A stretch of DNA of 64,000 bases from Obrimoposthia wandeli (taxonomy: Eukaryota): NCBI GenBank assembly GCA_977020255.1, contig CDROCS010000681.1, positions 186,001 through 250,000 of the forward strand. The letters are read 5' to 3'. Shown here in pieces: positions 1,720 through 64,000 of the stretch (positions within the stretch are counted from its first letter, which is position 1; every line of letters begins with the position of its first letter). The notes beneath the pieces were generated by a model. The model was not told where the DNA came from and did not search any database. It worked only from the letters and a program-made list of their open reading frames with translations. The position numbers and the translations under genes were made by a program.

Positions 1720-4700
1720 TCAGTATAACTTATCTAAAAGTTTTATTGAAACTTCATAACCTAAAAAGCATATCTAAATAAAAATTTTAATAATTATTCC
1801 TTTTATAATAAAACTTCATTACAAATAAGTTTATTTCAAGTAAAATATTATATTTATAAAAGCCTTTTGATTATTGAACACTGTATAGGACTCAAAAATT
1901 TTCGATTTTATTAACAGAATATTGATTATTTACATTTAAAAAATAATTTATCCTTTTTATTTGATATGAAAATAATAAATGCTTTTAATAAAACGATTTT
2001 TGGGTTAAAGCTAACAATTCAATATTTTATTATTTCACACTTTAAGAAATATATATTGGGTAATATTTCCTTTTTCTTTTGTAATTTCAAGGGGCTGAAA
2101 CTTGTATTTCTATAATCGAATGAAATGGTGAAAATTGTGACTGCATTTTCTGATTATTTCTATATACATCCACTTTTCAATCCTCTCCAACTTGCAGCAG
2201 TCAGGGCATCTACTCGATCAGGTATTGTATCCACAGTTTCTGAAACTCCACGTAGTCTAAAGCAAGTCCACTGGACACAAGTATGTTATATGACTTTACT
2301 TGAGATTCGTATTTTAATCTTCTTTCTTTCTGCAGCTGAATATTTGTAAGCTTGAAAAAGTTGATTGTTGTCGGTATTCCAGAACCCAAGGGTCCCTACT
2401 CTAATGACATATAGTTCTACCATTTTTTTACTATTATCTTTCCGCATAGTCTCGACTAGATTCTGATATTTGTCCATTGTTTTGCTGTAACTATTATTTT
2501 GACTCATATTACTGTGAAAGGGAACTTTTATTTTTACATAGTGGATGTAGGTTCTACCTTTTATCGTAATATCTGGTCTTGTTCGCTGAATATTGCCACT
2601 GTCATCCATTACCATAGTCGTTTCCTCCATGGCAATAGCATCTCCGTTATTTAGGGCAAGTTTAAGTAAGGCATATACTTCTCGAACTACCATATCGTGC
2701 CTCTGTACTTTCCAGTGATGGATTTTATAGCATTCTACTATAGCATGGTATACAGTCTCGGGTGATGATTTGTTGTTTCTTTTACACTCATATCGGCAAT
2801 AGTTAACTTTACGCTTACTATATAGTGCTTTAACATCCAAGCGTCTTATTAGGGATTTGTGTATAACGTACCATGCTTTATGAGTGAGTTTACACTTTAG
2901 GATAAACCTGTTAATGTCCGTATCAGATGTAGCATTTCCATAAATCACCTATCTTGGTTTATCATTAATTCTTACATGTTCAGTCCTAGCAATTGCGATC
3001 TGGTTGTGGATATTGGCACTTATTCCTTTGTTATTGTCGCTTGTGAGTACGGTATTAACATTACCCTTCTTAATTCAAATTACTAATTCATCATTTTCAC
3101 GATATGTAGCCCCTTTAGAGATTATAATTTCAAGATTCAACTCCTTCTTGATTTTCTTGTGAGCCTCAGTATACCTTGCTCACTCATTTATGTATGTTGC
3201 TTGAATGACTTTTTCATTTACGGCTTGGGCCAGCAACTCCAAAAGTCTCCACATTCCAGGATTCATTTACTTACTAAGGAGATTAGTTCAAGTCTAAAGG
3301 CTTGTTGTAATCATCCACGGTCTGCATTCACCATTCGGAAGACCTGGATTATGGCCTGGATATTTTACTCCTCCGTGAAACTTGGTATACCGAATCCTCC
3401 ATGATCTTTGTGACCATGGAAGGTTCCAAGATAGGTGTTTTTAGGCAGTCTTGCAATTCTTCGTAGTTGTTTCCTCACTTGCCGGTCATTGGCGTTTTTT
3501 GTTACTCCTTTAGTAAATCTATCATTGGTGAATCTCTCGTTAGAGATGTTGTTTTGCCTGCAACTGAATACAAATTTGGAGTGTACTAAGCTTTTGTACG
3601 CCGAGATTTTCTGGTGAGAATACAGTCTACTGTTCATGATCTTCATAGTCATGTGAAAATTCCCCTGAAATAGATCCTCGCATTTGTGTTTTGTATCTGC
3701 ATTCCTGTTCATACCTAGGTATCTGTAGGCACTATCTGTAGTTACTGCAGGTATAGAGTCTCCATTGAGTAAGATCTCCTTGATTTCTTTCTTTACATCT
3801 CTATTATTGCTGCACCTAAAAGGAATTCTGAGTATTCCACATTTGCTAGGTTCGAATCTTAATTGAATCCTGGCTGCAGTATCTGCTGCAGTATCCACCA
3901 TCATCTTCAGTACAGATTTGTCCTCAGCGAGTAAGGCAAGATCATCTGCATATGCTAGGGTAGCAAAATGTGTAGAACCACGTAGGAACCCAGCGTTGGG
4001 TACTTTCTTTACTGCCTCAATGGCGGGATTAATACAGAGATTAAATATAATCATGGACAATGGACAACTTTGGCGTACACCTATTTTAATGGGTATATCT
4101 TTAATATTAGTTTCTCCACGTTGTATGTCGGTTTTGTTCTCTTCGTAGATACTGTATACAAGTTTATATATCTTCTCAGAAATGTAAACTTTCAAAATCA
4201 TGCTTACGATGAAGTCTATGGGCACTGACCCAAAGGCATCAGCGATATCTAGGAATGCAACATGACAGGATCTTTTGTTTCTGTGACACTCATTGGTGAC
4301 TAGATTGAGTACTGTATTGTGCTCAAAACAGCCCTCAAACCTGCCAATGCTCTTTTGGAAGTTTTTCTTTCCATGATCAGTTTTGTAGATCAGAAGCAAT
4401 AACACTTGCTAGTACTTTATAAAGGCAACTCATAACCGCAATTGATCTCCACACAGAAATGTCATATAAGAATATTTTCTGGCTTTTGGAATAAACTTGG
4501 TTTTGAAGGTTCTTCATGCAGTAGGCTTTCAGAACTTGTTAAACAAGGACGTTATCTCATTGTAATTTGAGTCTTAATTCCTGATGTCGGAGTATGTTAT
4601 CCCATCAGGCCCTGGTACACTAGCAGGAGCTTTCCTGAGAGAAACACTTACCATCTTGGCAGTAACAAAATCACATGGATAGGTACTTTATCCTCTCCGA

Positions 4701-32137: not shown

Positions 32138-33340
32138 TTATATTCCGGGACTCGCTTTCATTTGTTGGAAAAGTCGCCGTAATTCTTCAATATGCGGATT
32201 TTGACGACCATTTTGATTAAAACTTTGAAATATAGGCATTTGAGTTAGGAACAAAGGTGGGGGCATAATATTTCCATGAGCAAGGACATTCTTTACTATA
32301 AGTGGACTAACAATAGCTATATCACGTTCTTCCTTAGACATAAAATATTGCACAGTGATATTTCTTCCGTATAATACAAAACCATTTAGATTTATGATGG
32401 CTGTATGGGCATTTTCTAATGTGTCAAATAACACATATCCCACTGTAAAAGGAATTTTAGGATTCCTGGGTTTATGCAACTTTAAGCTCAGAATTTTACC
32501 GTAAACTATTAGTTTTGATCTTAATTCTTTCTCGGATATACATACAGGAACATTACCAATGAACACATTCCTACCTCGGTAGTAAGCTTCTTTATCAGTT
32601 TTATTAATTCCCAAATCGGGTTCCACAAGCACATAAGAATCATTAATGAGTTCCCCACAAAATTTTTTAATGGCTTTTTCAACATGTTCGTGTGATTTGA
32701 AGTGTATAAAAGCCTGGCTGGATATTTCATTGTTGCTTAATTCAATTTCTTCTATTTCACCAACTTCCTCAAATATCGCCTTAACTTCTTCTTCAGTTAT
32801 TTCAGCATTGAGATTTGATACACAAACTCTGCTACTGTCTTCATACTTTTTCTTATTAGCACAACGAAAATCAAGTTTCTTTTCATAAACAATTGTTTTA
32901 TTCATCGTTTTAATGCATGAATCTACATCATTGTCATTTCTTAGTGTCAACCATCCAAATTTTGCACTCTGACATTTATTGTTCATTATCACTGATATCT
33001 GAGCTATTGGGAAATCTGGATTTATCAGTGTAAAAAGGGTTTCTGCAGTGGCCTGTGAAGGTAGAACTGCCATTTTTATCTGGGCTTTTACAGAATCATA
33101 GTCGTCACGAAATACAGAAATCTGACAAGGATAGTTCATGACAGAAGTAAACTGAGCTTCGTTGAGTAATCTTGTTGCTATGTCTTCTGCAACATTTGTC
33201 AAGTTAGCAATACTCGGTTTACCCGCATTGTGCACTAACGTAAAGATGACATCAGACAAATCAAATTCGACAAAGACGCTACGAAGCAACTCTTCCGTAA
33301 CTTCTCCATTTAAGTCGCTGATGACAAGTTTACGTGTCAT
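32138..33340 (-). CDS. Intronless, divergent polyadenylate-binding-protein-like protein with four RRMs and no MLLE domain, 400 aa
   Basis: Uninterrupted ORF. RRM starts KLVISDLNGEVTEELL, VCVSNLNAEITEEEV and GRNVFIGNVP. RRM4 ends LNGFVLYGRNITVQYFMSKEER (compare PABP ..MNG..V..KPLYVALAQRKEER), followed by a short P/Q-rich tail. Confidence 0.8.
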   Translation of the reverse strand: MTRKLVISDLNGEVTEELLRSVFVEFDLSDVIFTLVHNAGKPSIANLTNVAEDIATRLLNEAQFTSVMNYPCQISVFRDDYDSVKAQIKMAVLPSQATAETLFTLINPDFPIAQISVIMNNKCQSAKFGWLTLRNDNDVDSCIKTMNKTIVYEKKLDFRCANKKKYEDSSRVCVSNLNAEITEEEVKAIFEEVGEIEEIELSNNEISSQAFIHFKSHEHVEKAIKKFCGELINDSYVLVEPDLGINKTDKEAYYRGRNVFIGNVPVCISEKELRSKLIVYGKILSLKLHKPRNPKIPFTVGYVLFDTLENAHTAIINLNGFVLYGRNITVQYFMSKEERDIAIVSPLIVKNVLAHGNIMPPPLFLTQMPIFQSFNQNGRQNPHIEELRRLFQQMKASPGI

Positions 33341-43718: not shown

Positions 43719-44299
43719 ATGTTATAGCATTGCCAATGATGGCATTACCTTCCAGCAACTCTTGTACAATAGAACCACTTAATAAATGGATAACTCTATC
43801 TTCCGACATTTCACGTATGGATTCAGATAAGGTCAAATTATTGAAGCTTGATATAGGAAGTTCAAATGGTCTGAAGCGACGTAGATCACAAAGTCAGAAT
43901 GGTCAAGAGTCCCTCACATATTTTAATGGTGAAAACAACCTAATCATAGCCTCAAAAGATGATTCACTGATGGACTCTTCGATCTTGTCGAATTCATTGC
44001 CAAATGATTCAAGTATTACTCACAATCAATGGGGTAAAACTAAAACTAAAAAGGAGACACATAATCGAGTAGAGAGAAAACGAAGAGATTTTATAAATGC
44101 TCAAATTCAGAAATTGTCAAAATTGCTACCGCAAGAATATTTTATAAATAATGATCTTAAAATGAACAAGGGCCTCACATTGAAGAATTCAGTTGAATAT
44201 ATCAGTAGTTTGAAATTTGTAGACACATTTAATCAGCACTTATTAAAAGAAACGGAATATGCAGCAAGAGTTATTAAATTACTTCTAAAATCTAATGAG
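43719..44299 (+). CDS. bHLH(-ZIP) transcription factor exon, MiT/TFE-USF group
   Basis: KKETHNRVERKRRDFINAQIQKLSKLLP...NKGLTLKNSVEYISSLK. In-frame acceptor TTTTAG at 43718 and donor GAG|GTATGT at 44300; other exons not firmly located (possible short final exon at 44378). Confidence 0.8.
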
Positions 44300-45232
44300 G
44301 TATGTCAATTTATGTTTTGATTAAGGGGACCTAGAAGGATTCACAGTTTTTTAACGTTAATGACTTCAAATTTTCAGATATCGTTGATTTTATGTGAACA
44401 AAGAAATTTTTGTTTTCAATTATCAATTATATCGGGTGATCTTCACTTCAGTACTAGATAATTTAATATATTTTTTAAATAATTTTTAAAATATCTGCTT
44501 TTGCAAGAGTATCAAAACTTTATTGAGTTACTAATTAATATCTTTTTTCTTCCTAAAAATATATTAGTAAATGTTATTAATAGAAATAAATTTATCGTTG
44601 CACAATTTTTTCAAAAATCATTACTTTTTATTTGTTGGATGAAATTGTTTCAAATTTGCAGTAAAGTTTGTTAGTGTTACTCGATTACAACCTAATTATG
44701 AGGTCTTGGGAAGCTCTAATGGTTTAGTAAACAGCGATTCTTTTAGTTAATAGCGTCACACAGAAAATGGAAATGCTCATCTGCATTATAATATTAGATT
44801 TTTTACACAAGCTTTTATTAGTACATATTGTACATTAGTAAATTAAAATCATAAAGAAAATAAATGAATACTTATGGTTAATATGCGACTTCAATAATAG
44901 ATCCTATCACTGATAGAATATCACCTAGTTTCTGGCCCTGATACTAAATTTTAAAAATAATTTGGTATGTAAAATTAAAATATCACAAACATACACGGCG
45001 AGCATAAAGAAGCATCCAATGCAAATCAATCGTGAGACACAATTTTTGATAAAATTATTTTGTTGGGGTTTCTATTGAAACTCTTTATTCAAATAGATCC
45101 CCGTAAGGAGGCCCCCAACGTGAGTTCTGTAGCGATAGGGCTTACATATGGATGTGGCCTACTTAATTCTGAAGGTTTTGTGTCTTATTGTTTTGTGGTG
45201 GTTCAATGAGTTGTGTTCACAATTAAATTCTT

Positions 45233-51862: not shown

Positions 51863-52000
51863 CAAGCCAATCCCCAGGTGATTAAGGCCTAGTGATCACT
51901 GCAATTAGAAGTTGGGAACCTGGTCAAGGGAATGGTTGGTTGCCAAACCAGGCCTTATAAATGCAGAGAGTGGCTCGGTAAGTCTGGCGGTTTTTATGTT
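51863..52000 (+). promoter_or_regulatory. Promoter-like module, copy 1
   Basis: AGCCAAT, CAGGTG, GATTAAGGCCTAG, CACTGCAATTAG, CCTTATAAA, GAGAGTGGCTCG; alignable to 53496-53636. Confidence 0.55.
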
Positions 52001-53495
52001 AAAGTTTTGAAGAACAACCATAAAAACCAATTTGATAGCAAAAGCGTGGTTATTACTTACCACTGAATGTAATAATGGAAGTGGGGAGCCTGTAACCCCT
52101 TTAGTTGTTGACTGAGGGGGAATCCGGCAAACCCGAATGAAGTGAGGTTGGAGCAGTTGGAGGCCGCCTTGGGCCTAAGTAAAGTGAGAAAGTTGTGCGG
52201 GTAAGAGCGCATGTGTGGTGCCTTAAACGGCACTATGCGATGGTCAAGAGCTCGGGATACTCTCCAGCTGCGAATGGAGTTCAGAGCGATCCTTGGAGAA
52301 CAAGGACGACGGATGGGGCTGTCTCGACCTGGACTTTGATGTCTGGGCCGATGACAAAACCAACGAGGTCTCAGCGACGTATATCGAGCGAAGCTATACG
52401 GAGAGCATGAGTAACATTTTATCCAGTTGGAGCTGGGACAACATTTTGGAGTGTGGAGTGGAGCAACTTCGGAGCTACGAGGCTGCAAGTGGTTAAACTG
52501 TGGCAGGTGATAATGATCCCAAAATTAACACTGACTTGCGGTTTATGAATACCCGCAATGGAAAAAAACTGTTTGTATAAACTCTGATAAAGAGTTGAAA
52601 GGGAGTCAACAGGGAACGTAATAAACACTTCTGTGGATGCAACAGCCATAGATCGCCCAATTGAGAAAGTTGGGAGCTGTTGCAAAATTCTAAAAGAAGT
52701 GACTGTGACGAAGTGGTTCACCTGTAGCTCAGATTTTGAAAGACAAATTCTGGAGAAAATAATCGAATACCCGAAGGAAGAAAGGCAAATTTTAACTACA
52801 CTGAAGGTGGCAAAATTATTATTTTTATATATAGATATATATAGATGATCTGTTGGCCTGGGTTCATGTTGTGGATATGGCTATGAACAAAGTTCGGCTG
52901 AAGTTTATAAGAAAGCTACAGTTGATGCCGAATATGTTTTCCACAGAAAGTAAAGCCAATATGGATTTAGTTAGAGTAAGAGCAATTGATTGGAAGGAAC
53001 GAGAAGAAGAGCTAGCGGTGATGAAGAATCGTTTGTTAGGGGAGTGGAAAGCAAAAAATCTCACGATAGACGAAGCCTAATTTTATATGATGTTGAACGG
53101 GAGATCAGTTGGAGGTCAAGTGACGTGCAATGTAATTGTGGAAGATGACTTAGTAGTGTGATTGTTGAGATTGAAGAGAGGTTTAAATGACGAGGAGATT
53201 TTAAAACAAGGAGTACGTCAGAAACGTGTAGAAAAATTAGTTTAGACGAGATTACGAAATAGAGTATTAGCTAGCTTAGAGAATCCGGTGATTAATGAAT
53301 TAAAACATGAGTACGAATATCGGTGCCTTGAACTTGTGGAGAAATGGACGGGTTTGTGGATTTAGCGAAGAGATTGGAACATGATGAGACAGTTTGAGGC
53401 TGAGTTAGCAGTGATCGAGAGTAAATATTATGAGTGGGAAGAAATAGGGGAAATGTAATCAAGGCGAGAGTTGGGAGTTTAGTAAGTTTGCACTC

Positions 53496-53636
53496 CAAGC
53501 CAACCCCCACGTGATTAAGGCCTAGTAACCACTGCAATTAGCAGTTGGGGCCTGGCCAGTAGATTGGCTTGAATTGCCCAGTCAGGCCTTATAAAAGCCG
53601 AGAGTGGCTCGATAAGTAGAGCGACTTTTTAATGTT
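53496..53636 (+). promoter_or_regulatory. Promoter-like module, copy 2
   Basis: Same motif order, with CACGTG E-box and CCTTATAAAA; ORF 53651-53992 follows. Confidence 0.55.
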
Positions 53637-53992: not shown

Positions 53993-54420
53993 AAGCTGCA
54001 AGGTAACCCCTGTGATTCCTAGGGGATTGACCTAGACTTCGTGAAGCCAATACTCAGAAAAATGGTTAACTCTGAGCCGCCAATACAAGCAGTGTGGCGG
54101 CGCTCTGCTCAATGCCATCGGTAATGGATAGCCAAGGGTCGATGTGCGACGCCTGACAGAAGTTGTAGGGACTCGTTTGGGCGTGGTGCTGGAGGATGCA
54201 CGGTCTTCGAATTTGGTCGCAACTACCTGTCCGAACCTAACAAAATCTAATGAACATGTTAGACAGGTGAAAATTTGCGGTTTCTTACGACAGAGGATTC
54301 ATGTAATTCATTTCCAGCCTCACAAAAGCATAGCTCTGTTAATAGGTTCATGAGTAGGTGGATGTGTGTCTTTCGGAACAAAGACATTTTGACCCCCCAG
54401 GAGAAAAATTTTTATGAAGG

Positions 54421-54905
54421 TCAAAAATGTAGGTCAAAATTTTTTGAAATTTGCGCGAAAATTTCTGAAATATAGGTCAAATTTTTGAAATTTGCGCTAA
54501 ATTTTTTGAAAATTTTTGAAATTTGCGCGAAAATTTTTGAAATTTCCATGAAAATTTTGAAATTTGCGCGAAAAAATTGAAATATAGGTCAAAATTTTTG
54601 AAATTTGCGCGAAAAATTTTGAATTCAAATTTTTTATGACAGATGTAGGTCAAATTTCTCCCGAGTACACATGATTTTTATTTAAATTCATGAGGTCAAC
54701 TTAAGGTCACGGTGAGGACAAGATGTAGGTCAAGTCAACCATGTGTCTTTCGGAACAAAGACCATGAGTCATCGATGAGTCATCGATGAGTCATCGATGA
54801 GTCATCGAACAAAGACCATGAGTCATCGAACAAAGACCATGTGTCTTTCGGAACAAAGACCATGAGTCATCGATGAGTCATCGAACAAAGACCATGAGTC
54901 ACCCA
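54421..54905. promoter_or_regulatory. Subterminal motif arrays: TTTCGCGC x4 (minus), WAWNTAGGTCA x3, TGAGTCA x8
   Basis: GCGCGAAA at 54453, 54525, 54566, 54607. AAT.TAGGTCA at 54426, 54469, 54581. ATGAGTCA at 54764, 54775, 54786, 54797, 54818, 54862, 54873, 54894. Confidence 0.6.
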
Positions 54906-55128
54906 TGAGGACAACTTAAGGTCATGGTGAGGTCAAAGAGATTCTATTTTTAGTAACATACTTAAATTCTATTTTTAGTAACATACTTAAATTCTATCTA
55001 ACAAAGACAGTCACGCATCTATATTGCAAATACTTGCATCTTTATGTAATCAATAGTAACATTTATTCTTATACATGTATATATGTGTGAGTGTCTAACA
55101 AAGACACTGCATCTATATTGTAATGTAA

Positions 55129-55494
55129 TTACAAAGTTTTTGGTCGGTTTGCTAAAAAGTTTAGTTTTGGACCAAGATAAGCACTAGGATCCTTTTCAAA
55201 TGCTTTTGTAAGTTTATCTAATTTTACAAAAATATCAAGCATACCATCTCCTTTTTGTATACCATCTCCTTTTTGCACTTGTTTCTGATTTTGTATACCT
55301 CTCAAATAATCCACATTCTTTTTGTGCTTTATAGCTTTTTTATCAACTCCGCCAAACCATCTACCTAAAAGATTTGCTGCCATCATATGAATACCCAAAC
55401 CTTCCATGATTTTCTTTTTACTCATAGTCTTTTTACTCATAGTCTTTTTAACCCTAGTCTTTAATGATTTAGTAGGTTTTTTAGTCATTTTCAT
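55129..55494 (-). CDS. Small lysine-rich element protein (possible core/DNA-binding protein), about 121 aa
   Basis: Likely start MKMTKKPTKSLK at 55494; basic N-terminus; MEGLG and QKGDG x2 motifs. Confidence 0.6.
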   Translation of the reverse strand: MKMTKKPTKSLKTRVKKTMSKKTMSKKKIMEGLGIHMMAANLLGRWFGGVDKKAIKHKKNVDYLRGIQNQKQVQKGDGIQKGDGMLDIFVKLDKLTKAFEKDPSAYLGPKLNFLANRPKTL

Positions 55495-55579
55495 AATAAA
55501 TATTAAAGTATCACTATTGTTTATAATATAATAATAAATAATATATATAAAATAATACAAATAAAGACACAAAAATTTA

Positions 55580-55969
55580 TTAGTCAACTCTAACAGCATC
55601 AATTAGTTTCCATATCGGAGTTTCCAATCCACTGGGCCCGATCTTGCATCCTTGAATTCTGATTGAGATAATCCATTCTAGCTTAGGAGGAGGTGCTTCG
55701 TATATTGTTCCATTCTCATGCTTGAAAGTGGCAGTTGATCCTTTGATTACGAATTTGTTTTCCTGAAGTGCATAGTTGATTCCGAATTGAGTCAAGAGAA
55801 TATTGATTCTCTCTTTATCCACAGAAGTCAAATTTGATATTTCAAAATCAAATTTAAGCGGCTCGATGTTGATAGGAAAAATAAAATTATAGTTATGAGC
55901 TTTCTTCAAAAAGTGCATCTCATATCCAAAATATGTATGCATAGGTTGATATAGCTTTTCGAAATTCAT
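55580..55969 (-). CDS. Hypothetical 129-aa element protein, possibly an OB-fold/SSB-like protein
   Basis: Clean ATG ORF; the beta-rich C-terminus WIISIRIQGCKI..PIWKLIDAV only loosely resembles viral SSBs. Confidence 0.5.
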   Translation of the reverse strand: MNFEKLYQPMHTYFGYEMHFLKKAHNYNFIFPINIEPLKFDFEISNLTSVDKERINILLTQFGINYALQENKFVIKGSTATFKHENGTIYEAPPPKLEWIISIRIQGCKIGPSGLETPIWKLIDAVRVD

Positions 55970-56060
55970 ATTGACAATTATAAATTGAAATATTCAATTG
56001 TTTATCCTCTAAAGCTCGATTCTAATTGGTCGATTAGTCTCAATTGCTTAACATTCTTGT

Positions 56061-56267
56061 TTATCGTCTAGTATTAGTCATATCCTTAAAGGGCTCACGT
56101 TCTTCGGTTACGCGCGTAGGACTTGTTATTGTTTGACTTGATGGATTAATATTTTCTCTCTGATTATTTCTATTATAATTCATATTAGAATATAAATTAC
56201 TACTGGAACCTATGTATGTACTAGCTCTACTTTCATTATTTTGATTATTTTGATTATCCATTATCAA
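56061..56267 (-). CDS. Small N/Q/S-rich ORF divergent from the IAP
   Basis: ATG ORF beginning 107 bp from the IAP start, sharing the intergenic repeat module. Confidence 0.35.
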   Translation of the reverse strand: MIMDNQNNQNNESRASTYIGSSSNLYSNMNYNRNNQRENINPSSQTITSPTRVTEEREPFKDMTNTRR

Positions 56268-56286
56268 AATATTGTTTATACTAAGA

Positions 56287-56328
56287 CAAATAGTTGCAAA
56301 TAGTTGTAATGTGGTCTAAAAATAGATT
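56287..56328 (+). promoter_or_regulatory. 42-bp module, identical copy at 58010-58051
   Basis: CAAATAGTTGCAAATAGTTGTAATGTGGTCTAAAAATAGATT, followed by TATATAAG (56338) or TTATAAA (58061). Confidence 0.7.
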
Positions 56329-56373
56329 TTCACTTACTATATAAGCTAGACAATTTCATCATTCAATTTTGTT

Positions 56374-57370
56374 ATGACTACTAAATTTATTGCACATTAT
56401 GTTTCAGAAAACGGAGAACTCACCATTAGACGACGGCGTTTTGATAATATTTCAAGAATAAATGAAAATATGATATATGAAGAAAGAAGATTAGAATCGT
56501 TACAAGCAAAGTTTACTGGTTTAGCCCATAAGAAAGCTTTAGCAAAAGCAGGATTTTACAAGCACGATGGTTCGAAAGATAATGTAAAGTGTATTTACTG
56601 TCAGGGAGGAATATCAGGATGGGAGTACTATCTGAAACCAATGAAGCAACATCAGCTATTTTTCCCAAGATGCCCGTTTGTTTTGAAAATGAATGTTTCA
56701 AACGTACCAATAATTGATTCCAGCACCACCCAAATTGATTTTGATACAACTCCAATGGATAAAGTAGTTATTGTGCGCAATAATTATTCTAATGATATTG
56801 AAATACCTACATTATCGATTTTCGATCATGTATATATTTGGAATGATTCTTATCGATGTTGTTTCTGTCGGCCAGCAGTACCCCGACTTGACCTTATTGA
56901 TACTATGCCTGATCTTTCATACTCGAGATTGTAAAGCATCTAGTATGGGAATCAAGAACGGATGTATTGTTGAATATCATATTAGTAATGATGAAATTGA
57001 TGCCCAGATGGAAACTCGTCAAATAGTTTTGCTGAAACGTGATTACAGCCATGATAGAATCAAAGCTGTTTTAGTTAATAGGTTTAAAACATTCGGTAAT
57101 AAATATGATTCTATATATGAGTTTATAACGGATTTAAGGTCTTTAGAAATAAAATCTGAACCAAAACATCGGATAAATTATCTCGAGTACCTCTTACCAA
57201 ATCCCGAATGTGTTGTTTGCATGAGTGATGCGATTTCCGTGGCATTTTTACCATGCGGTCACTTAAACACGTGTATTAAATGTTCAGATCGTTTTATTAC
57301 ATGTCCATATTGCAAGACAATTATCATTAGACGAGTAAGAAATATTAGATTTCATAGCATAGGCAATTAA
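56374..57370 (+). CDS. iap: Inhibitor of apoptosis (BIR, degenerate second BIR-like segment, RING); one frameshift near 56860-56925
   Basis: BIR: ERRLES..LAKAGFY..DNVKCIYC..GW..KQH..FPRCPFV. RING: CVVCMSDAISVAFLPCGHLNTCIKCSDRFITCPYC. Confidence 0.9.
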
Positions 57371-57433
57371 GCAAATCTAAAAATATATGTTCAAATTGTA
57401 TAAATAGAAGAAATCAGTTTATAATAATCAGAA

Positions 57434-57970
57434 ATGCTACTTCATAATATCAAATTAGTGAATATTAATTACAAGGGAATGGTTGTAAGTAACATTCAAC
57501 ACTTACCATTTCGGACTTCGAAGCCTCATCAGTATCGACTCAAGTGTGAAGGTTACACTATTATCATTTTCAAATCTGGTAATTTATATTTACATTTATA
57601 TATAATTCTAATTTAGGTACATGCAGAATAATGGGTTGCAAAACAGTGCTGGATGAAAGCAGTCTTCCTTTTGATATAAAAATCGAAAGAATCCAATCAA
57701 TCAGTCTCAGCAGCAATCTAGAAACATCGATAAACCTAAACAAGATGAGCAAGAGTATGGGATCAGAAGCTGTTTACGAGCCAGAAATCTTCCCGGGACT
57801 TCGATACGTCAAATACAATCCCCTATGCGTGAACATTTTTTGCTAGCGGGAAGATTATGATACTCGGTGTTAAATCTTTAAACTATGAGTATCTGATTGA
57901 ATGTATTTTGTTTAATATAGATCTTCACACTTGTGTTATTTATTTCCTAAACCAAATAGTTTTAAAATAG
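57434..57970 (+). CDS. TATA-binding-protein-like protein: exons 57434-57578 and 57617-57970, 38-nt intron, one extra T at 57836-57841; about 165 aa
   Basis: Splicing gives IIIFKSGTCRIMGCK (repeat 1). YEPEIFPGLRY..VNIFASGKIMILGVK is repeat 2 (TBP consensus YEPELFPGLIY..LIF.SGK.V.TGAK). Confidence 0.8.
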
Positions 57971-58549
57971 ATTTCTCTTAGAGACAAAGACATCACATGT
58001 CATTACTTGCAAATAGTTGCAAATAGTTGTAATGTGGTCTAAAAATAGATTGTTCATGGGTTATAAACAATATTTGATTTGCTTTTTATCATAAAATGGA
58101 TGAAATTATTCAATGTACAGAGATTGAGGATACATTATAAGAACTTGCTTCAGTTATTCTCATTGCTTTAATTAAGAAAAATAATCCTAAATAATAATTA
58201 TATGTAGTTTATTTAACTCTCTTAGTTACGTCATCAACTACATTTACATGAGATGTTAAATACAATGGAAAGGTTGAATAATACTCCAATCAAATCATAT
58301 GATGAAACTGATGCTCCAATGAAATCAAACCTTGTTTAATATATAAGACTAAATTGACTCGGAATTGATAAAATGGAGAAAATCGATTCAGCACCAGAAG
58401 CAACATCATCATCAGTAACATCATCACCACCAGCAACAACAACAACAGTTATAAGAAGAGAGAAGAAACTATTGATGAAGTGACGATAGAAGAAGAAATT
58501 ATTATAGATCAATTATTGAAGATAAGAGACGGATAGATTTTTAAATGCT

Positions 58550-58984
58550 TTGGCTTTTATGGAACCCATAATAGCTCATGCTTCGAGTATGGAAATGAAC
58601 CACATGACCCATCTTTTTGATAGTTTGTTTAGTGCTAGATTTACTCAACTTAATGTAGAAAAGTTAAACAAAACCGCGATGAGTGAGATTTTAGTAAATC
58701 AATTATATATTGGTAATTATAGAGATGGGTTTGATGAAACTAATCTTTTGAATTCCAATTTCACTCATGTAATCAATACATCTATACTGGATAAAATATC
58801 TTATAAGAAATTAAAATATACTTCTGTCTTTGTAAACTCAAAATTAGGAGAAACAATAATGAAGTATTATAAACAGACATTTTTTATAGCAATAATTTTA
58901 TTTGATATTGTTTATGCTTTAACCAAAGCAGACAGAGTTGTCCACATGACTGTGTTAAAACATTTTGATAATGTTTCTTACTAA
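58550..58984 (+). pseudogene. N-terminal half of a dual-specificity-phosphatase-like protein; no HCxxGxxR motif
   Basis: MSEILVNQLYIGNYRDGFDETNLLNSNFTHVIN matches the DUSP/VH1 N-terminal pattern; the 3' part overlaps the protease end on the opposite strand. Confidence 0.6.
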
Positions 58985-59268
58985 AATGTACTTTCTTTCC
59001 AGAATCAAGTACTGTAGATACTAATTTAGAAGGGTAATATATCCCAAAGGGATCAAAAACAAAGATTTCATTTTTCTTTAACATGTATTGCAATCCAATG
59101 TTCACCACGCAAATTAGATGAATGTGTATTGATTACATATCCACCTAGTCGAGTCAAAGAGGGGATGTGATCAAGGCTGTAGACTCCATTGAAACGCGAA
59201 CCGAGTAGTTTTCTTCCGCTTTTTGTTATCTCGTCCGAACTAGAATATATATTAATTAATAAATTCAA
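58884..59268 (-). CDS. Adenain-like cysteine maturation protease, one frameshift at 59077-59079
   Basis: YVINTHSSNLRGEHWIAI / FVFDPFG / YQNVLTQSCGQLCL (His-Asp-Cys triad); start codon uncertain. Confidence 0.88.
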
Positions 59269-59318
59269 ACTGACTTACTTCATTTATATATATATCTTCT
59301 TTATTGTTTTCATTCTGT

Positions 59319-60549
59319 TTATACTAGTACTGTTCCTCCCTTGGTAATTTGAACCTCAGAATCGAATACTCCATAGATTATAATATTAGTAGGATGTTCA
59401 AGTGCTTTTGAAAACTTGATTTCTACTTTCAAATTTCCCTGTTTAGGTATTTGAGCTTGATTAATATCGAAATCAGGAGAGAGAACAAATGTGAACAGTG
59501 TATACTTGTCCTTGAAATCAGTCATTGAAATTCCAATATTAGCATCCTTATCCAAATGACCAAGATTTCTAATTAAAGATTGCACATAAGAAAACACATA
59601 ATCATCGTTTTCAAAAGTCTTTCGTATAAGATTTTTTATAACCAATTTTTGGGGAAATTTAAATTAAACTCACATTCATGTGTCCAAATTGAGAAACCTC
59701 ATTTTTAGACTCACCTCCATAGGTAGAAGTGTTTTGGAAAGCAATTAAAACAAAGTTTGGAAGTTGCATATCACCAAAAATCTGATCCTTGTAATAAGAT
59801 AGTGCTCCTGTAGGGATAGCGTGAGAAACAAGATTAGTTTTTCTAATAGGATAACATGCATTTTGCTTCTCCAACCCCATTCGATGTGCAACAAGTACAG
59901 ATGGTTCCACCTTTACTCTTCGAACCAGCAGTTTTGCTTCCGTAATCTCAATTGCGGTTTTAATAGTATCAGCGCAAACAACACTAAAACCTACTGGATT
60001 TCTCTTCATCCGAATATGTGCACTTACACCGGGTAAAAGATACTTTGGTTGCTTAAAGAAATCCAAATGGAGACTCCCACAAAGTGACAATACTTTAGAC
60101 TTTGCAATCGAAGCAATTCTTCTTTTTTCATCATTGTCAAACCCAATTGCATCAAGATTAATCAATTTCGTATCATTACCGTAATTCAACAATGTTTCAA
60201 TCATTGCTTTATGAGTGTAGCTAGTATTATTTCCCTCAACTTTCACATTATTGAGACTGAGAATCACATCCTTGAAAAGAGTATGCAACATGTAATTAGC
60301 TGATTTGATATCCATACCATCATCCAAATCACCTCCACCTTCCTTTGTAACTTTCAATTTAACGAGAAATAAACTATCATTCAAATCAAGATATTGAGTA
60401 TTGGATCCATTAATATTGAATTCTAAATCCGGAGAAGATGTCCCGTTAACCGTATTTGTCGGAAATATTTCTTCAAAACTAGCACTATCAACCACAACCT
60501 GAGGTATAGGTTTATCGAATATACACAATTCAGTTTTAGCACAACTCAT
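59319..60549 (-). CDS. Major capsid protein (double jelly roll), interrupted by TAA at 59659-59661 and a +1 shift at 59613-59616
   Basis: CAKTELCIFDKPIPQVVV, LEFNINGS..YLDLNDS, LHLDFFKQPKYLLPGV, FTFVLSPD..GNLKVEIKFSKAL..IIIYGVFD: Polinton MCP patterns. Confidence 0.9.
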
Positions 60550-60913
60550 TACTTAAAAATTGTTCCACCTAGTTTCAAACGTTTGTTTATACCCGATACT
60601 TTAGATGTTTTCTTACGTTTATAACCACTTCCCTTTTTGAGTTTTCTTTTTTCAAAAATTCAGCTAGACTTGGTGAAATTTCATTCACCTGATCCAAGGC
60701 TGCTTCCTTTAGTGTGGGAAGAAATTTCTCATCACTTGACAAGTATTTTGATCCAACATTAGCAATAAATTTCCCGAGTCGCTTGAGTAGTGGGAAAGCA
60801 AAGCGACCAAAAACCTTCATCCATCCTGATCCATACTGTTTTCCGGCAAAATAAGGCAAATCACCTCCTTGCATCGGTTTACTATATGCATCGATTATAC
60901 TTGAATCAATCAT
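60549..60913 (-). CDS. Conserved small Polinton protein with an amphipathic helix and basic tail (frameshift near 60634-60652)
   Basis: MQGGDLPYFAGKQYGSGWMKVFGRFAFPLLKRLGK. The shifted frame ends KKGSGYKRKK..GGTIFK* with TAA overlapping the MCP ATG. Confidence 0.75.
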
Positions 60914-61925
60914 AATTTACGAAAATGAACCGTTAAACTTGTTTTAGCTGTAAGCAAATGTAATTAATCTTCCAGAATCATTACGTATATTAACTTCAAT
61001 ATTGTTTATAGAAGAACTCACGGGAATATACATTGGATTTTCAATTGGAATATGTATAACATCACCATACTTGTGCTTTTCCTGTTGAACCCAAATTGCT
61101 TTAATTAGGGAAGTTTCCTTCCTCCTACGAATATTGGTTCGGTAATACTCGTGTAGATATAAATCTGATTATATGCATTAGTCATTTTAGGAATAATCTT
61201 TGCTTTGAAAACCTCATTTTTATTTTCAAATTCATTTTCATCAAAACCGATAATTGAGGCTAATGATTTATCCATGATGATTTTATCAATATTGGATTTC
61301 AATTTGAAATGAATCAATTTATTAACTAGTTTAAAGTTTTCAAATACATTTGGTAACACTGTTTTAAAATGTTTACACATACTTTTGCTATCGGCAAAAA
61401 GAAAATCATTGGGAACTGAATATATTTTCCTCTCGCGTTTAACGAATCTATTTTTATCTTGAATGTAATTATCGGATACTTGACATGATTATCCATAATT
61501 TTTGAAACTGCATGCTTACCTTTTTCAACGTTAGGCGGAAATCCATATTGTTCTGCAACAATTTCATCATTAAAAACTATTTCAAAATTATCCCCTTTTC
61601 CCATAATTTGAATTCGATTCTCTTTATTTAAAAAGATTGTGAAATCATCGCCCGCCTTAATACGAGCCAAATCCATTTGACCCTTATCAAATAGTAAAGT
61701 CACATCAGTTACTTTATCAACTTCACGTTGGGTAATATATTCAATCTCAGTTTCACTTTGAATAGATAGAGGAGAGTAATTGAAAGAAAATTCCGTAAGA
61801 GCAGCTTCCCAACCACCAGGTAAATTGATTGAGCTTTGATAATCAATACTAAAACTATTAGCAGTATTATTCGGTTGAGTTAATGGCGAACCATTACTTG
61901 GTAATACAACATACATTGAGTTCAT
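60910..61925 (-). CDS. Minor capsid (penton) protein, two frameshifts (near 61411-61413 and 61114-61122)
   Basis: MYVVLPSNGS..PNNTANSF..INLPGGWEAALTEFSF; IYIYTSITEP; NPMYIPVSSSINNIEVNIRNDSGRLITF..LTVHFRK*. ATGA overlaps with both neighbours. Confidence 0.85.
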
Positions 61926-62950
61926 TCTATTTGAGAAGCTAATATCCAACTAGGTTCAGTATATCCATGCCACTTAACATGATATTGTTTATGCTTTCCT
62001 CTACCTTTTGTCTCTAAAATTTCTTGGATTCTATATACATTCGGTTTCTCAGGCAAGACTTGTAATTCCTCATGATAAAATTTACCCGTGATTACCTTAT
62101 TGGTTTCATCCTCAATGAAATACATTACCGGCATACGTTTATTATCAATTTTAGTTATACGAAATACTTCATCACTCCAATTCTCTTTGAAATTCTTTAT
62201 AAAAGGAGTAGTACTAATTTGAGAAATACGTACATAATCACCAACTTTATACTTGGGTTTCCGCGCAACTTGACTTTGGTTACGGCGTTGCCAAATTGCC
62301 ATAGCATTCTCATCTGTAACATCAACGGGTCTCTTTCGGTCTAATGATGAGTGTTCACTATGATTGTATGCATGTATTATTTGAGGTAAAACAGTAACCC
62401 AGGACTTATTTCCCTGCTTTGTGAAATACTTTTTCAAACGATCTCTCAATGTTCGATTAAAACGTTCAACTAAAGCGGCTTTATATTGGGAAAATACTGA
62501 GTAATGATTAATATTATGTTTTTTCAATAGTGTTTCAACATGTTTATTATAAAACTCCTTTCCACTATCCGTTTGGAAATTTCTTGGTTTTATTTCTTTA
62601 ATCAAAAGCTTCATTGCGGTTAAAACATCGGTACCAGACTTAGACTTTAATGGAATAGCTCGCGCGAATCTGCTAAAGACATCAACACAAGTTAAAATAT
62701 ATCGATATCCGTTGTTAATACTCGCATACGGAATCATTTCCATCAAATCTGCTTGCCATAAATCATTCGGGCCGCTCGTTTTGTATGATCTCGTTGGGAA
62801 CCGACGTCTCATTGGTTTGTTTAAGCTGTAAGCTAATTGATTTCTCAACCACGCCTGAGTTTCCTGCTTTGTCTTCTTTGTCTCTTTTGCTAATTTTGAA
62901 ACCCCTGTGTAACCAACGGGATGACTTGGATCGAACCATATTTTCTCCAT
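61922..62950 (-). CDS. int: Retroviral-type DDE integrase with a C-terminal chromodomain-like segment, intact, 342 aa
   Basis: WQADL (D), FQTDSGKEF (D), ALVERFNRTL (E); C-terminal YRIQEIL..YHVKWHGY..SWI. Confidence 0.95.
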   Translation of the reverse strand: MEKIWFDPSHPVGYTGVSKLAKETKKTKQETQAWLRNQLAYSLNKPMRRRFPTRSYKTSGPNDLWQADLMEMIPYASINNGYRYILTCVDVFSRFARAIPLKSKSGTDVLTAMKLLIKEIKPRNFQTDSGKEFYNKHVETLLKKHNINHYSVFSQYKAALVERFNRTLRDRLKKYFTKQGNKSWVTVLPQIIHAYNHSEHSSLDRKRPVDVTDENAMAIWQRRNQSQVARKPKYKVGDYVRISQISTTPFIKNFKENWSDEVFRITKIDNKRMPVMYFIEDETNKVITGKFYHEELQVLPEKPNVYRIQEILETKGRGKHKQYHVKWHGYTEPSWILASQIE

Positions 62951-63047
62951 TGCAGCAAGACGATTTGATTTTTAAATTGAATTTAGGAATAGATGGAAGT
63001 GATCCCATATATAAATTCATATTATTGATTCGAATTTATGTTTATAA

Positions 63048-63398
63048 TCATCGGTTAATTAGTCTACTAGCAAGTGCACCAACTATTGAGCTAATAATTG
63101 GTACGAGAAATCCTAAAAATCCACCACTTTGCTTATAAAGCAACTTACGTTTACCGATTCGTGTTTTGGCATGAAACAAAGCAAGTAGAGGTTTCTTATG
63201 CCGATTCAGGTTAGCCTTGACAATTATTTTACCAGAAACTATTTTCTGTATCATATTAAGTAAATCATCAATTACAAAAGTAGGGAATGATTTAAGAATA
63301 GCTGGGCGGCGAACAGCAGGTGCACGCATGAGAGAATTGAAATAGGCAGTACTCCTAGATTTCCTAACAACAGTTCTTTTCGATTTTTGAGCAACCAT
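63048..63398 (-). CDS. Small basic Polinton protein ending in QSGGFLGFLVPIISSIVGAL (hydrophobic/amphipathic tail)
   Basis: Likely ATG at 63398 (MVAQKSKR); R/K-rich; QxGGF motif typical of this gene position in Polintons. Confidence 0.75.
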   Translation of the reverse strand: MVAQKSKRTVVRKSRSTAYFNSLMRAPAVRRPAILKSFPTFVIDDLLNMIQKIVSGKIIVKANLNRHKKPLLALFHAKTRIGKRKLLYKQSGGFLGFLVPIISSIVGALASRLINR

Positions 63399-63420
63399 TT
63401 TCCTTGCACTTAAAACTGAT

Positions 63421-64000
63421 TTAATCAATTTTTAACTTCGGGTTTAACAGTTTCCTTTTAAAATTCATCTTCTCAAAACTGGTTTCTTTTGTTTGTTTAT
63501 AGATGGTTATTCCCGATGGATTGAATACATCAGTTCTAACTCTAAAGTCATCGGGACAATCTTGAGTAAAATCAATAAAAATGTATCCATGAGGAATAGT
63601 AGTTGCATCTTGAAATGAATCAATTAAAAACTTTCTATTATTCGGGTAAGCTTGTCTTGAAACAAAATCAACAACCGTCTGATCACGTGGATTCTTGAAG
63701 AGAACAAGGTAATGTACATTTAAATTACGAGTTCTATGGTTCCCTCCTTGATGAAATAGATTTTGTGTGATGAAAATAACAGTTACTTCCCGATGTCGTG
63801 CTATTTTAGTGAATAAATTATTGAAATCACTCTCTTTATTTGCTTCTTGATATAAATCATCAATAACAATAACATCATGTCGTTGTAATCGCTCAGACCA
63901 ATTATCATCGAATCCATTAATGACTTTTATATTTTTTGATTTTCTTAAACTCTTTACTGGTTAAACCAGCTTCTCCATCTCCTCCCTGATGCCAGTATAT
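63421..64000 (-). CDS. A32/FtsK-like genome-packaging ATPase, C-terminal part (partial; +1 shift at 63932-63937)
   Basis: Hand translation, absent from the ORF track: VIVIDDLY (Walker B), KIARHR, IFITQNLF, LFKNPRD, HGYIFID, FRVRT; stop at 63423-63421. Confidence 0.92.

Follow-up and report, generated by a model that had tools for sequence, protein, structure and literature searches.

The closest described relatives of the element reported here are the Polintons or Mavericks, equivalent to the adintoviruses (Polintoviricetes), with which it shares an rve integrase, an A32/FtsK-like ATPase, a pX-like gene and putative capsid and protease genes, together with a 6-bp TSD and ends that start with AGT. 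IAP and Bcl2 homologs were reported from adintoviruses (Starrett et al. 2021, PMC8502044), and the legend to Fig. 5 of that paper uses the label 'TBP' for MELD viruses with an adintovirus-like PolB. TIRs of described Polintons span 100-1,500 bp in the accessible text of one source (PMC10748475) and 46-1,447 bp in that of another (PMC8097293), whereas the element described here has arms of ~4.5 kb with five genes. Polinton virions are described as unobserved (PMC8097293), and the viral cycle of animal Polintons is a long-standing open question. An apoptosis regulator on a mobile element is also known from the BIR-bearing Burro retroelements (PMC6431247). Viral TBP mimics acting with host Pol II on a TATA variant at structural genes have been described in beta- and gammaherpesviruses (vTBP; EBV BcRF1 and KSHV ORF24; PMC4893493), and giant viruses encode TBP-like factors with a TBP fold whose N-lobe has diverged, which may free them from host regulators such as BTAF1/Mot1 (Ravarani et al. 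2020, PMC7221094).

The window, by which we mean the whole stretch of 64,000 nucleotides analysed here from contig CDROCS010000681.1 (C681) of Obrimoposthia wandeli, contains the left end of a Polinton/Maverick of 15,795 bp, which extends from window position 54353 to C681:256147 (C681:240353-256147) and runs 6.1 kb past the window end. It has the TIR and 6-bp TSD by which a Polinton/Maverick is recognized. The original prediction had placed three + strand genes at 56374-58984 in a Maverick, and this context was borne out, the neighbouring - strand genes being Polinton core genes (rve, PF00665, E 3.3e-14; Pox_A32, PF04665, E 3.9e-6, above cut-off). The three genes themselves gave BIR/RING, TBP and DSPc matches, as expected, and all of them are broken in the window copy. 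The features are as follows.

54347..54352, no strand: 6-bp TSD TTCATG; its partner follows the right end at C681:256147, outside the window
54353..64000 within the window, no strand: Polinton/Maverick element, with no pPolB between its two ends
54353..58878, no strand: left inverted arm of ~4.5 kb, which mirrors the opposite end of the element and takes the place of the parent family's polymerase end
55129..55599, - strand: lysine-rich ORF, 120 aa from the second Met in sisters
55580..55969, - strand: 129-aa ORF, candidate SSB of T7 gp2.5/Enc34 type by model
56287..56328 (copy 1) and 58010-58051 (copy 2), + strand: 42-bp direct repeat with IAP and TBP between the copies
56338..56345, + strand: canonical TATA box, 36 nt above the IAP start
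56374..57370, + strand: IAP gene by Pfam (BIR, Cys/His-rich linker, RING), in frames 56374-56934 and 56792-57370
57399..57406, + strand: canonical TATA box, 35 nt above the TBP-like start
57434..57982, + strand: compact TBP-like gene with exon 1 at 57434-57578, a predicted intron of 38 nt at 57579-57616 and exon 2 beginning at 57617
58340..58347, + strand: canonical TATA box, 33 nt above the DSP-like start
58373..58878, + strand: DSP-like gene, 5' 169 codons of 240, broken and ended at 58,878 by the arm junction
58869..58878, no strand: arm/core junction with a 10-bp microhomology, shared by arm and core when each is aligned to parent copies
58909..63500, - strand: eight ATAAACA boxes, 5' bases 63500, 63045, 62547, 61992, 61009, 60590, 59322 and 58915
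58929..59300 (limits approximate), - strand: protease with a frame break in the window copy, which from a motif and the gene order we take to be adenain-like
59320..61925, - strand: putative major capsid (409 aa in sisters), 120-aa ORF and putative minor capsid, named by size and position
61922..62950, - strand: retroviral-type integrase, with a weak chromodomain match
63048..64000, - strand: pX/mu-like basic protein (weak Adeno_PX match) and A32-like packaging ATPase, the latter continuing beyond the window

From the native end, the gene order of the element is lysine-rich and SSB-like (divergent), IAP, TBP-like, full DSP-like (240 aa), 93-aa ORF, ATPase, pX-like, integrase, putative minor capsid, 120-aa ORF, putative major capsid, protease and finally the mirror arm, which holds DSP codons 1-169 only. 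In the native arm, the IAP, TBP-like and DSP-like genes lie in this order on the strand of the core operon, at its head, and the same holds for the much larger parent family with pPolB. The + strand trio in the window is the mirror duplicate of that head, and it appears to oppose the core operon because of the mirror duplication. The trio had been read as an arm of its own that runs against the core operon; what runs against the operon is the duplicate, and the native copy is co-directional with it. The ORFs taken as capsid (double and single jelly-roll) and protease had no Pfam match; relatives have conserved ORFs whose size and order would suit these proteins. For the 129-aa ORF a structure model (pLDDT 95.6) gave VIA Z scores of 7.7 and 7.3, under the tool's trust level of 8; with these moderate scores it is likely a single-stranded DNA-binding protein of the T7 gp2.5/Enc34 type. 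The ESM Atlas gave no match for it, and 20 of the 51 metagenomic loci described below have a homolog of it close to the TBP-like gene.

A DNA search with the TBP region returned 2,561 candidates, 40 of which were scored; all were 99-100% identical and many occurred as inverted pairs ~8.4 kb apart. Eighteen copies of the window's subfamily were mapped (14 full two-armed, 2 cut at a contig end and 2 deletion derivatives), and pPolB was found in none of the 18, unlike in adintoviruses. This mapping (two arms, no pPolB) also ruled out a single-arm polymerase-bearing state for the window copy. Among the copies with both ends, 13 of 15 had a perfect 6-bp TSD, which differed from copy to copy. The exact window-type junction had 37 matches, nearly all on separate contigs. 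It was also present among the contigs of four read sets, all of the same sample; these runs behave like DNA contigs. The window element is a non-autonomous Polinton derivative without pPolB, and the polymerase-less palindromic subfamily to which it belongs has gone on integrating.

The parent form is represented by the uninterrupted DSP sequence, with 1,244 exact matches as against 37 for the derivative junction, and by a motif beyond the parent's protease, with 2,359. At all 12 motif loci fetched, a pPolB match lay on the far side of the motif, its N-terminal part beginning ~0.7 kb from the motif in 8 of the 12, in a genome that is dense in pPolB and with the looser of the 12 placements weak. 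The trio and pPolB occurred within one element in 3 of 12 parent-type loci, the rest being cut, nested or deleted. One parent copy had TIRs of roughly 0.55 kb and a 6-bp TSD; in one copy of the parent family, IAP and TBP were deleted between the two 42-bp repeats. The first bases of the ends are common to the families, and parent and derivative arm differ by 2.1% (arm ~98% identical). Because the arm alignment and that of the core have 10 bp in common at 58869-58878, we infer that a template switch at this microhomology replaced the polymerase end by an inverted copy of the other end, which would have created the window subfamily. The two-armed form would have spread afterwards, presumably with pPolB supplied in trans by relatives, since its TSDs are fresh.

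The window IAP frames matched BIR (E 3.6e-15) and RING (E 2.5e-12), and the gene is broken near 56,912 into frames of 186 and 192 aa. One 333-aa sister protein matched PF00653 (E 1.8e-13) and PF13920 (E 1.2e-11), both above Pfam cut-offs. Across 28 arms, the single 333-aa frame was present in 12, the window-type split in 11 and other breaks in 5, while among 20 of the 40 scored loci the 333-aa frame was present in 6 and the window-type split in 9; a single-base indel underlies many of the frame breaks, which may stem from the assembly. Like the BIR-RING IAPs (baculovirus IAP, cIAP/XIAP), the protein keeps all Cys/His zinc ligands of the BIR and has a C-terminal RING. Unlike them, it has a single clear BIR, and most Polinton copies have Leu-Lys in place of the acidic pair before the conserved Pro (NAIP-type BIRs). 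These residues serve caspase binding by the peptide groove. To judge by the sequence, such binding is doubtful here, and our guess is that the protein probably serves as an E3 ligase and less as a caspase trap of the classical kind. A UBA-like linker was considered for its resemblance and rejected, there being no Pfam or PDB support. A protein search with the IAP gave no match at E<=0.001. Among the best 30 BIR loci in the genome, 28 are Polinton-borne, 26 adjoin a TBP-like gene and only two are host-like; the Polinton-borne loci comprise at least 3 lineages (35-60%, 77% and over 95% identity).

The ORF originally assigned to the phosphatase (58559-58984) has antisense protease sequence as its 3' end. 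The full DSP gene is found in the other arm of the window element and in the parent family, and a full-length sister protein matched DSPc with E 4.8e-13, above the Pfam cut-off. In a gap-free alignment with DUSP19 it has Gly in the position of the catalytic Cys and His in that of the Arg. The P-loop reads CGHYGSLH in the family and CSHYGTHT and CGHYGGLH in two diverged relatives, none of which fits HCx5R; all readable Polinton DSP P-loops in the genome, from three lineages, lack the catalytic Cys and Arg. A VH1-type phosphatase had been predicted, and poxvirus VH1 is an active enzyme; this assignment gives way to that of a pseudophosphatase, as read from the P-loop, which is probably a binder or decoy. 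STYX-type pseudophosphatases share the DSPc fold, STYX being among the PDB hits of the Polinton DSP, and have Gly at the catalytic Cys position. Unlike in STYX, the P-loop Arg is also replaced in the Polinton protein and the gene is on a mobile element. A protein search with the DSP domain returned nothing at E<=0.001. The nearest DSP found was a catalytically intact domain, ~32% identical, in a high-copy polyprotein element of the same genome.

The window fragment of the TBP-like gene gave a Pfam match of E 4.6e-7 and exon 2 of a sister copy one of 6e-13, above cut-off. The predicted 38-nt intron is of the GT-AG type, and intronless relatives read straight through at this position; in the four read sets named above, none of the joints displayed falls at this intron. 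Exon 2 shifts frame near 57,83x in the window; it is open in 22 of 28 arms and in 18 of 20 loci from the 40 scored. An intronless 156-aa version heads the operon in polymerase-bearing families of another layout. The compact proteins have ~150-165 aa and are 21-24% identical to cellular TBP in structure alignments. Public relatives numbered 30 at 41-57% identity, with 61 cluster representatives at E<=1e-30; the ESM Atlas gave generic TBP clusters. We located 51 metagenomic loci with the TBP-like gene, 31 of which had another gene of this element. In a tree of 52 rows, the Polinton rows fall in a 38-row group, and a 100/100 branch separates the four host rows and cellular-type rows from it. Polinton TBP-likes form a 100/99 subclade of 22 rows that includes 12 of 13 labelled rows; at the locus of one labelled metagenomic row, L256, no other Polinton gene was found. 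The gene-tree check proposed with the original prediction thus showed no nesting among host TBPs, and recent capture from the host was rejected on account of the 100/100 branch between Polinton rows and the four host rows.

All three genes were found in sister copies, a further check that had been proposed. It had also been stated that none of them is a Polinton core gene. The TBP-like gene behaves as a clade-wide core gene of this Polinton clade and not as captured cargo, because it is found in polymerase-bearing relatives and at 51 metagenomic loci. At those 51 loci, on contigs that are mostly short, the cargo slot held IAP in none and DSP in one (intact); an E2 and a RING gene were also seen there. 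From these sequence comparisons IAP and DSP appear to be variable, exchangeable cargo, and the trio no fixed set. Between lineages, dN/dS was 0.09-0.12 for the ATPase, 0.14-0.17 for TBP-like, 0.31-0.41 for DSP and 0.17-0.45 for IAP, ranges from which values of ~0.8-1.8 from near-identical or frame-shifted same-family copies were left out.

An AF2 model of a relative that is 41-45% identical to the window's gene (pLDDT 93.5) superimposed on human TBP with Z 13 and rmsd 2.5 A over 148 residues. The two-lobed saddle fold is present in this model, with only two helices, both in the C-lobe, the N-lobe helices being absent; cellular TBP has four helices (PMC10005294). In a fold search with the model, cellular TBPs (E 1e-9) came ahead of viral ones (E 4e-8 and weaker). 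With sites mapped by alignment, all 31 sequences compared retain the F, F and R of the C-lobe together with the acidic pair, and three of the four intercalating Phe sites are kept, while the first N-lobe Phe site is mostly Q/K/R, with F in at most a few rows. The N-lobe of TBP reads the 3' half of the box. The C-lobe acidic pair is a TFIIB contact that viral TBPs have mostly lost (PMC7221094).

We found ATAAACA eight times on the coding strand of the window's 5.1-kb core and never on the opposite strand. A box was counted if it lay within 20-110 nt of the ATG, in lineage sets obtained with an 80% ungapped filter, so defined that copies with indels may count twice. The ATPase has ATAAACA in 20 of 21 lineage sets, 17 of them at 31-36 nt, compared with 0.4 expected from shuffled sequence and 1 on the reverse strand; the metagenomic relatives alone gave 10/10. 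At structural genes the box is found ~34 nt above the ATG (MCP 9/11, mCP 12/14, 120-aa ORF 9/10). Other counts were pX 4/6, integrase 8/12, protease 1/4, SSB-like 7/16 and pPolB 1/5, and those for the remaining genes TBP 0/35, IAP 2/6 and 93-aa ORF 1/4. A canonical TATA box at 20-60 nt was present above TBP in 16/35 (shuffled 2.5), IAP in 3/6 and the ATPase in 3/21; 18 of the 35 TBP upstreams have no TATA core at 25-60 nt. DSP (ATAAACA 0/5, canonical TATA 5/5) and the lysine-rich ORF (ATAAACA-type box 6/6) are represented by upstream sets that are mostly one family. Position -1 of the box is T in 47 of 65 sites.

The same genome contains a second Polinton clade. In 20 long stretches of it none of its elements showed a TBP-like gene, and the two TBP HMM hits there belong to neighbouring first-clade elements. 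Here ATAAACA was found above the ATPase in 0/17 copies and above the putative minor capsid in 0/7 rows, and at the capsid it was absent in 6/7 rows and present in one at 18 nt, all in a single decayed lineage that provides one independent contrast. Scans outside this genome yielded no TBP-less control: IMG/VR had no relative when queried with the TBP alignment or with the ATPase and capsid, as single sequences and as alignments, and a prokaryote collection yielded one 3-kb fragment.

We assign a probability of about 0.68 to the reading that the trio is the mirrored head of the Polinton main operon and that the TBP-like protein is the element's late-gene switch, acting via the TATAAACA box. Host TBP would transcribe the TATA-driven genes first, namely IAP, TBP-like, DSP-like and the 93-aa ORF. 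The element's TBP, with a stripped N-lobe and with the C-lobe Phe and TFIIB-contacting acidic pair kept, would then bind TATAAACA, favouring this box (C at position 7) over TATAAATA and TATATAAG, and would recruit host TFIIB and Pol II to the genes for the ATPase, the capsid, the core protein and the integrase. IAP and the pseudophosphatase may be exchangeable early cargo that conditions the host cell. The correlation between promoter and gene class makes it likely that the late box is read by the element's own TBP. We also lean, somewhat less firmly, towards a wider picture of a widespread animal Polinton clade with two-stage, virus-type transcription, a minimal TBP on TATAAACA late promoters, and palindromic polymerase-less satellites that go on integrating with doubled early genes. 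This TBP would be the smallest two-lobed TBP-like factor among those compared here, with the contacts to host TFIIB retained and the regulated helices of the N-lobe lost.

It is possible, although unlikely, that ATAAACA is instead read by a host factor, either a forkhead protein or host TBP/TRF using it as a weak TATA box, and that the TBP-like protein acts otherwise, e.g. by TFIIB competition. ATAAACA is a forkhead-type consensus site, and the T at position -1 in only 47 of 65 sites is consistent with such a reader. Cellular TBP also keeps part of its activity on boxes with C at position 7, with 27% for TATAAACG and about 7-50% for TATATACA in the tables of PMC10005294. However, the box is strand-specific and lies at TATA-box distance (31-36 nt above the ATG), as do the canonical boxes of the early genes, it is missing from the ATPase of the TBP-less clade in the same host, and it occurs above the TBP gene in 0/35. 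More improbable still is the host-manipulation module of the original prediction, in which the TBP-like protein would shut down or redirect host transcription and the phosphatase would be an active VH1-type enzyme. Such a module would agree with the IAP next to the TBP-like gene in 26 of the best 30 BIR loci, with purifying selection on all three genes, with the retained acidic TFIIB-contact pair, which would make TFIIB sequestration possible, and with a DSP with an intact active-site motif near the TBP gene of the metagenomic relative L224. It is at odds with the loss of catalytic Cys and Arg from every readable Polinton DSP P-loop in three lineages and with the TBP-like gene occurring without IAP at 51/51 metagenomic loci (short contigs) and in polymerase-bearing families of this genome, and it leaves the promoter dichotomy unexplained. 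Control of the element's own late genes fits the TBP-like protein better than host manipulation, IAP and DSP lie in a variable cargo slot, and a fixed host-manipulation trio is not supported; the proposal that the set points to a virus-like cycle stands.

We give very little credence to the two-armed polymerase-less form being an assembly artefact or a one-off dead rearrangement with its genes as decaying passengers. Frame breaks are indeed frequent, and arms within one element are up to 1.9% apart, yet the junction has 37 exact matches on nearly all different contigs and recurs among the contigs of four read sets from a single sample, 13 of 15 copies have a different perfect TSD, and between-lineage dN/dS is well below 1.

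On the late-gene switch reading, the likeness to herpesvirus vTBP lies in a viral TBP mimic and a TATA variant at structural genes, with host Pol II use presumed for the Polinton (PMC4893493). Unlike with the herpesvirus vPIC, none of six partner proteins was noticed here, the analogy is functional only, and the Polinton box varies at position 7 (TATAAAC) whereas the herpesvirus TATT box varies at position 4. Giant-virus TBPs resemble the Polinton protein in fold and diverged N-lobe; they have mostly lost the TFIIB contacts and have a viral TFIIB partner (PMC7221094), whereas the Polinton protein has the acidic pair in 31/31 and no TFIIB-like ORF was noticed. Adintoviruses, as described in the accessible part of PMC8502044, differ in that the clade reported here has a clade-wide TBP-like gene and a matching promoter class.

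As to whether the combination is undescribed, adintovirus IAPs and the MELD 'TBP' label are already in print in PMC8502044, and a literature search turned up no description of the trio, of a Polinton TBP paired with a late promoter, or of multi-kb arms that carry genes. Subscription papers, Repbase reports and bioRxiv supplements, where one may exist, lay outside its scope; the accessible part of a 2026 PLV framework preprint does not mention TBP or TATA, and PMC11410931 does not mention Polinton or Maverick. The sequence comparisons point to a Polinton clade with its own compact TBP and matching promoter class, and to a polymerase-less palindromic subfamily.

If the late-gene switch reading is true, an element-encoded TBP and a dedicated box on the genes for capsid and packaging would together form a regulatory hallmark of a viral cycle, the box would predict start sites, timing and the tissues that make particles, and the system would parallel the TATT/vTBP switch of herpesviruses independently of it. 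A TBP of ~155 aa with shifted specificity would also be a natural probe of TBP-DNA recognition.

Derivative arms differ by 0.5%, and the two arms of a single element by up to 1.9%. The arms of one element can carry different alleles, and these differences, like the 4.5-kb arms themselves, bear on Polinton replication and recombination.

A first-look search of the whole host genome assembly revealed a very heavy Polinton load, with 24,442 candidates for pPolB, 19,768 for TBP, 14,213 for DSPc and 12,110 for BIR, all of these being candidates rather than copy numbers. Several copies were found nested within other Polintons (contigs C6785, C2673, C2062 and C1109).

Within single two-armed elements the IAP alleles of the arms can differ, one being split and the other a single frame, as we observed on C681 (the window's contig), C2408 and C2673. 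Since each arm's allele in these elements was also found in other copies, the discordant arms suggest exchange between genomes. Two shorter deletion derivatives were also mapped, one of them reduced almost to arms only, and the right part of the window's own element (L021) holds a duplication:

C2282:166080-173389, shorter deletion derivative with a perfect TSD
C1137:51011-58766, shorter deletion derivative with a perfect TSD
L021:1161-2100, 658 bp duplicated in tandem, taking in the 93-aa ORF and the 3' end of the DSP gene

The TBP-like genes of this genome carry, in some Polinton lineages, an intron of 38-40 nt at a single position and lack it in other lineages; the extracted stretches contrasted in this respect were L061, L062, L065, L068, L070 and L074 versus L033, L039, L042, L048 and L063. 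A divergent TBP-like gene without introns is present on C60 and C1092. Between the window's TBP-like and DSP-like genes lies a small acidic ORF, which in a sister copy has 32 aa.

C238:871991-875236 (L050/L051), two host TBP paralogs, back to back
window 58063-58200, small acidic ORF with an ATAAACA box above it

Among metagenomic relatives, the cargo near the TBP gene differs:

L231:222-719, E2 ubiquitin-conjugating enzyme
L248:1710-2171, RING protein
L224:4008-4319, intact DSP

The second Polinton clade (L275/L276 and L277-L324) is decayed, and no TBP-like gene of its own was found in 20 long stretches. The ATPase match falls into two parts in many of its copies, the break coming after roughly codon 35 and perhaps reflecting an intron. 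DSP domains were also identified in a high-copy element (L156-L185, for example L174:1-3384), whose open frames reach 4,633 aa and encode two DSP domains, the first intact and the second degenerate. The DSP of this element, which we would guess is possibly a giant retroelement of the Burro type, is ∼32% identical to that of the Polinton.

Elsewhere in the window we noted the following features, the repeats lying in a decayed G-rich stretch:

3365-4201, reverse-transcriptase fragment
32138-33340, three-RRM gene
43736-44320, bHLH gene
51863-53629, two direct repeats ∼1,633 bp apart, immediately left of the element
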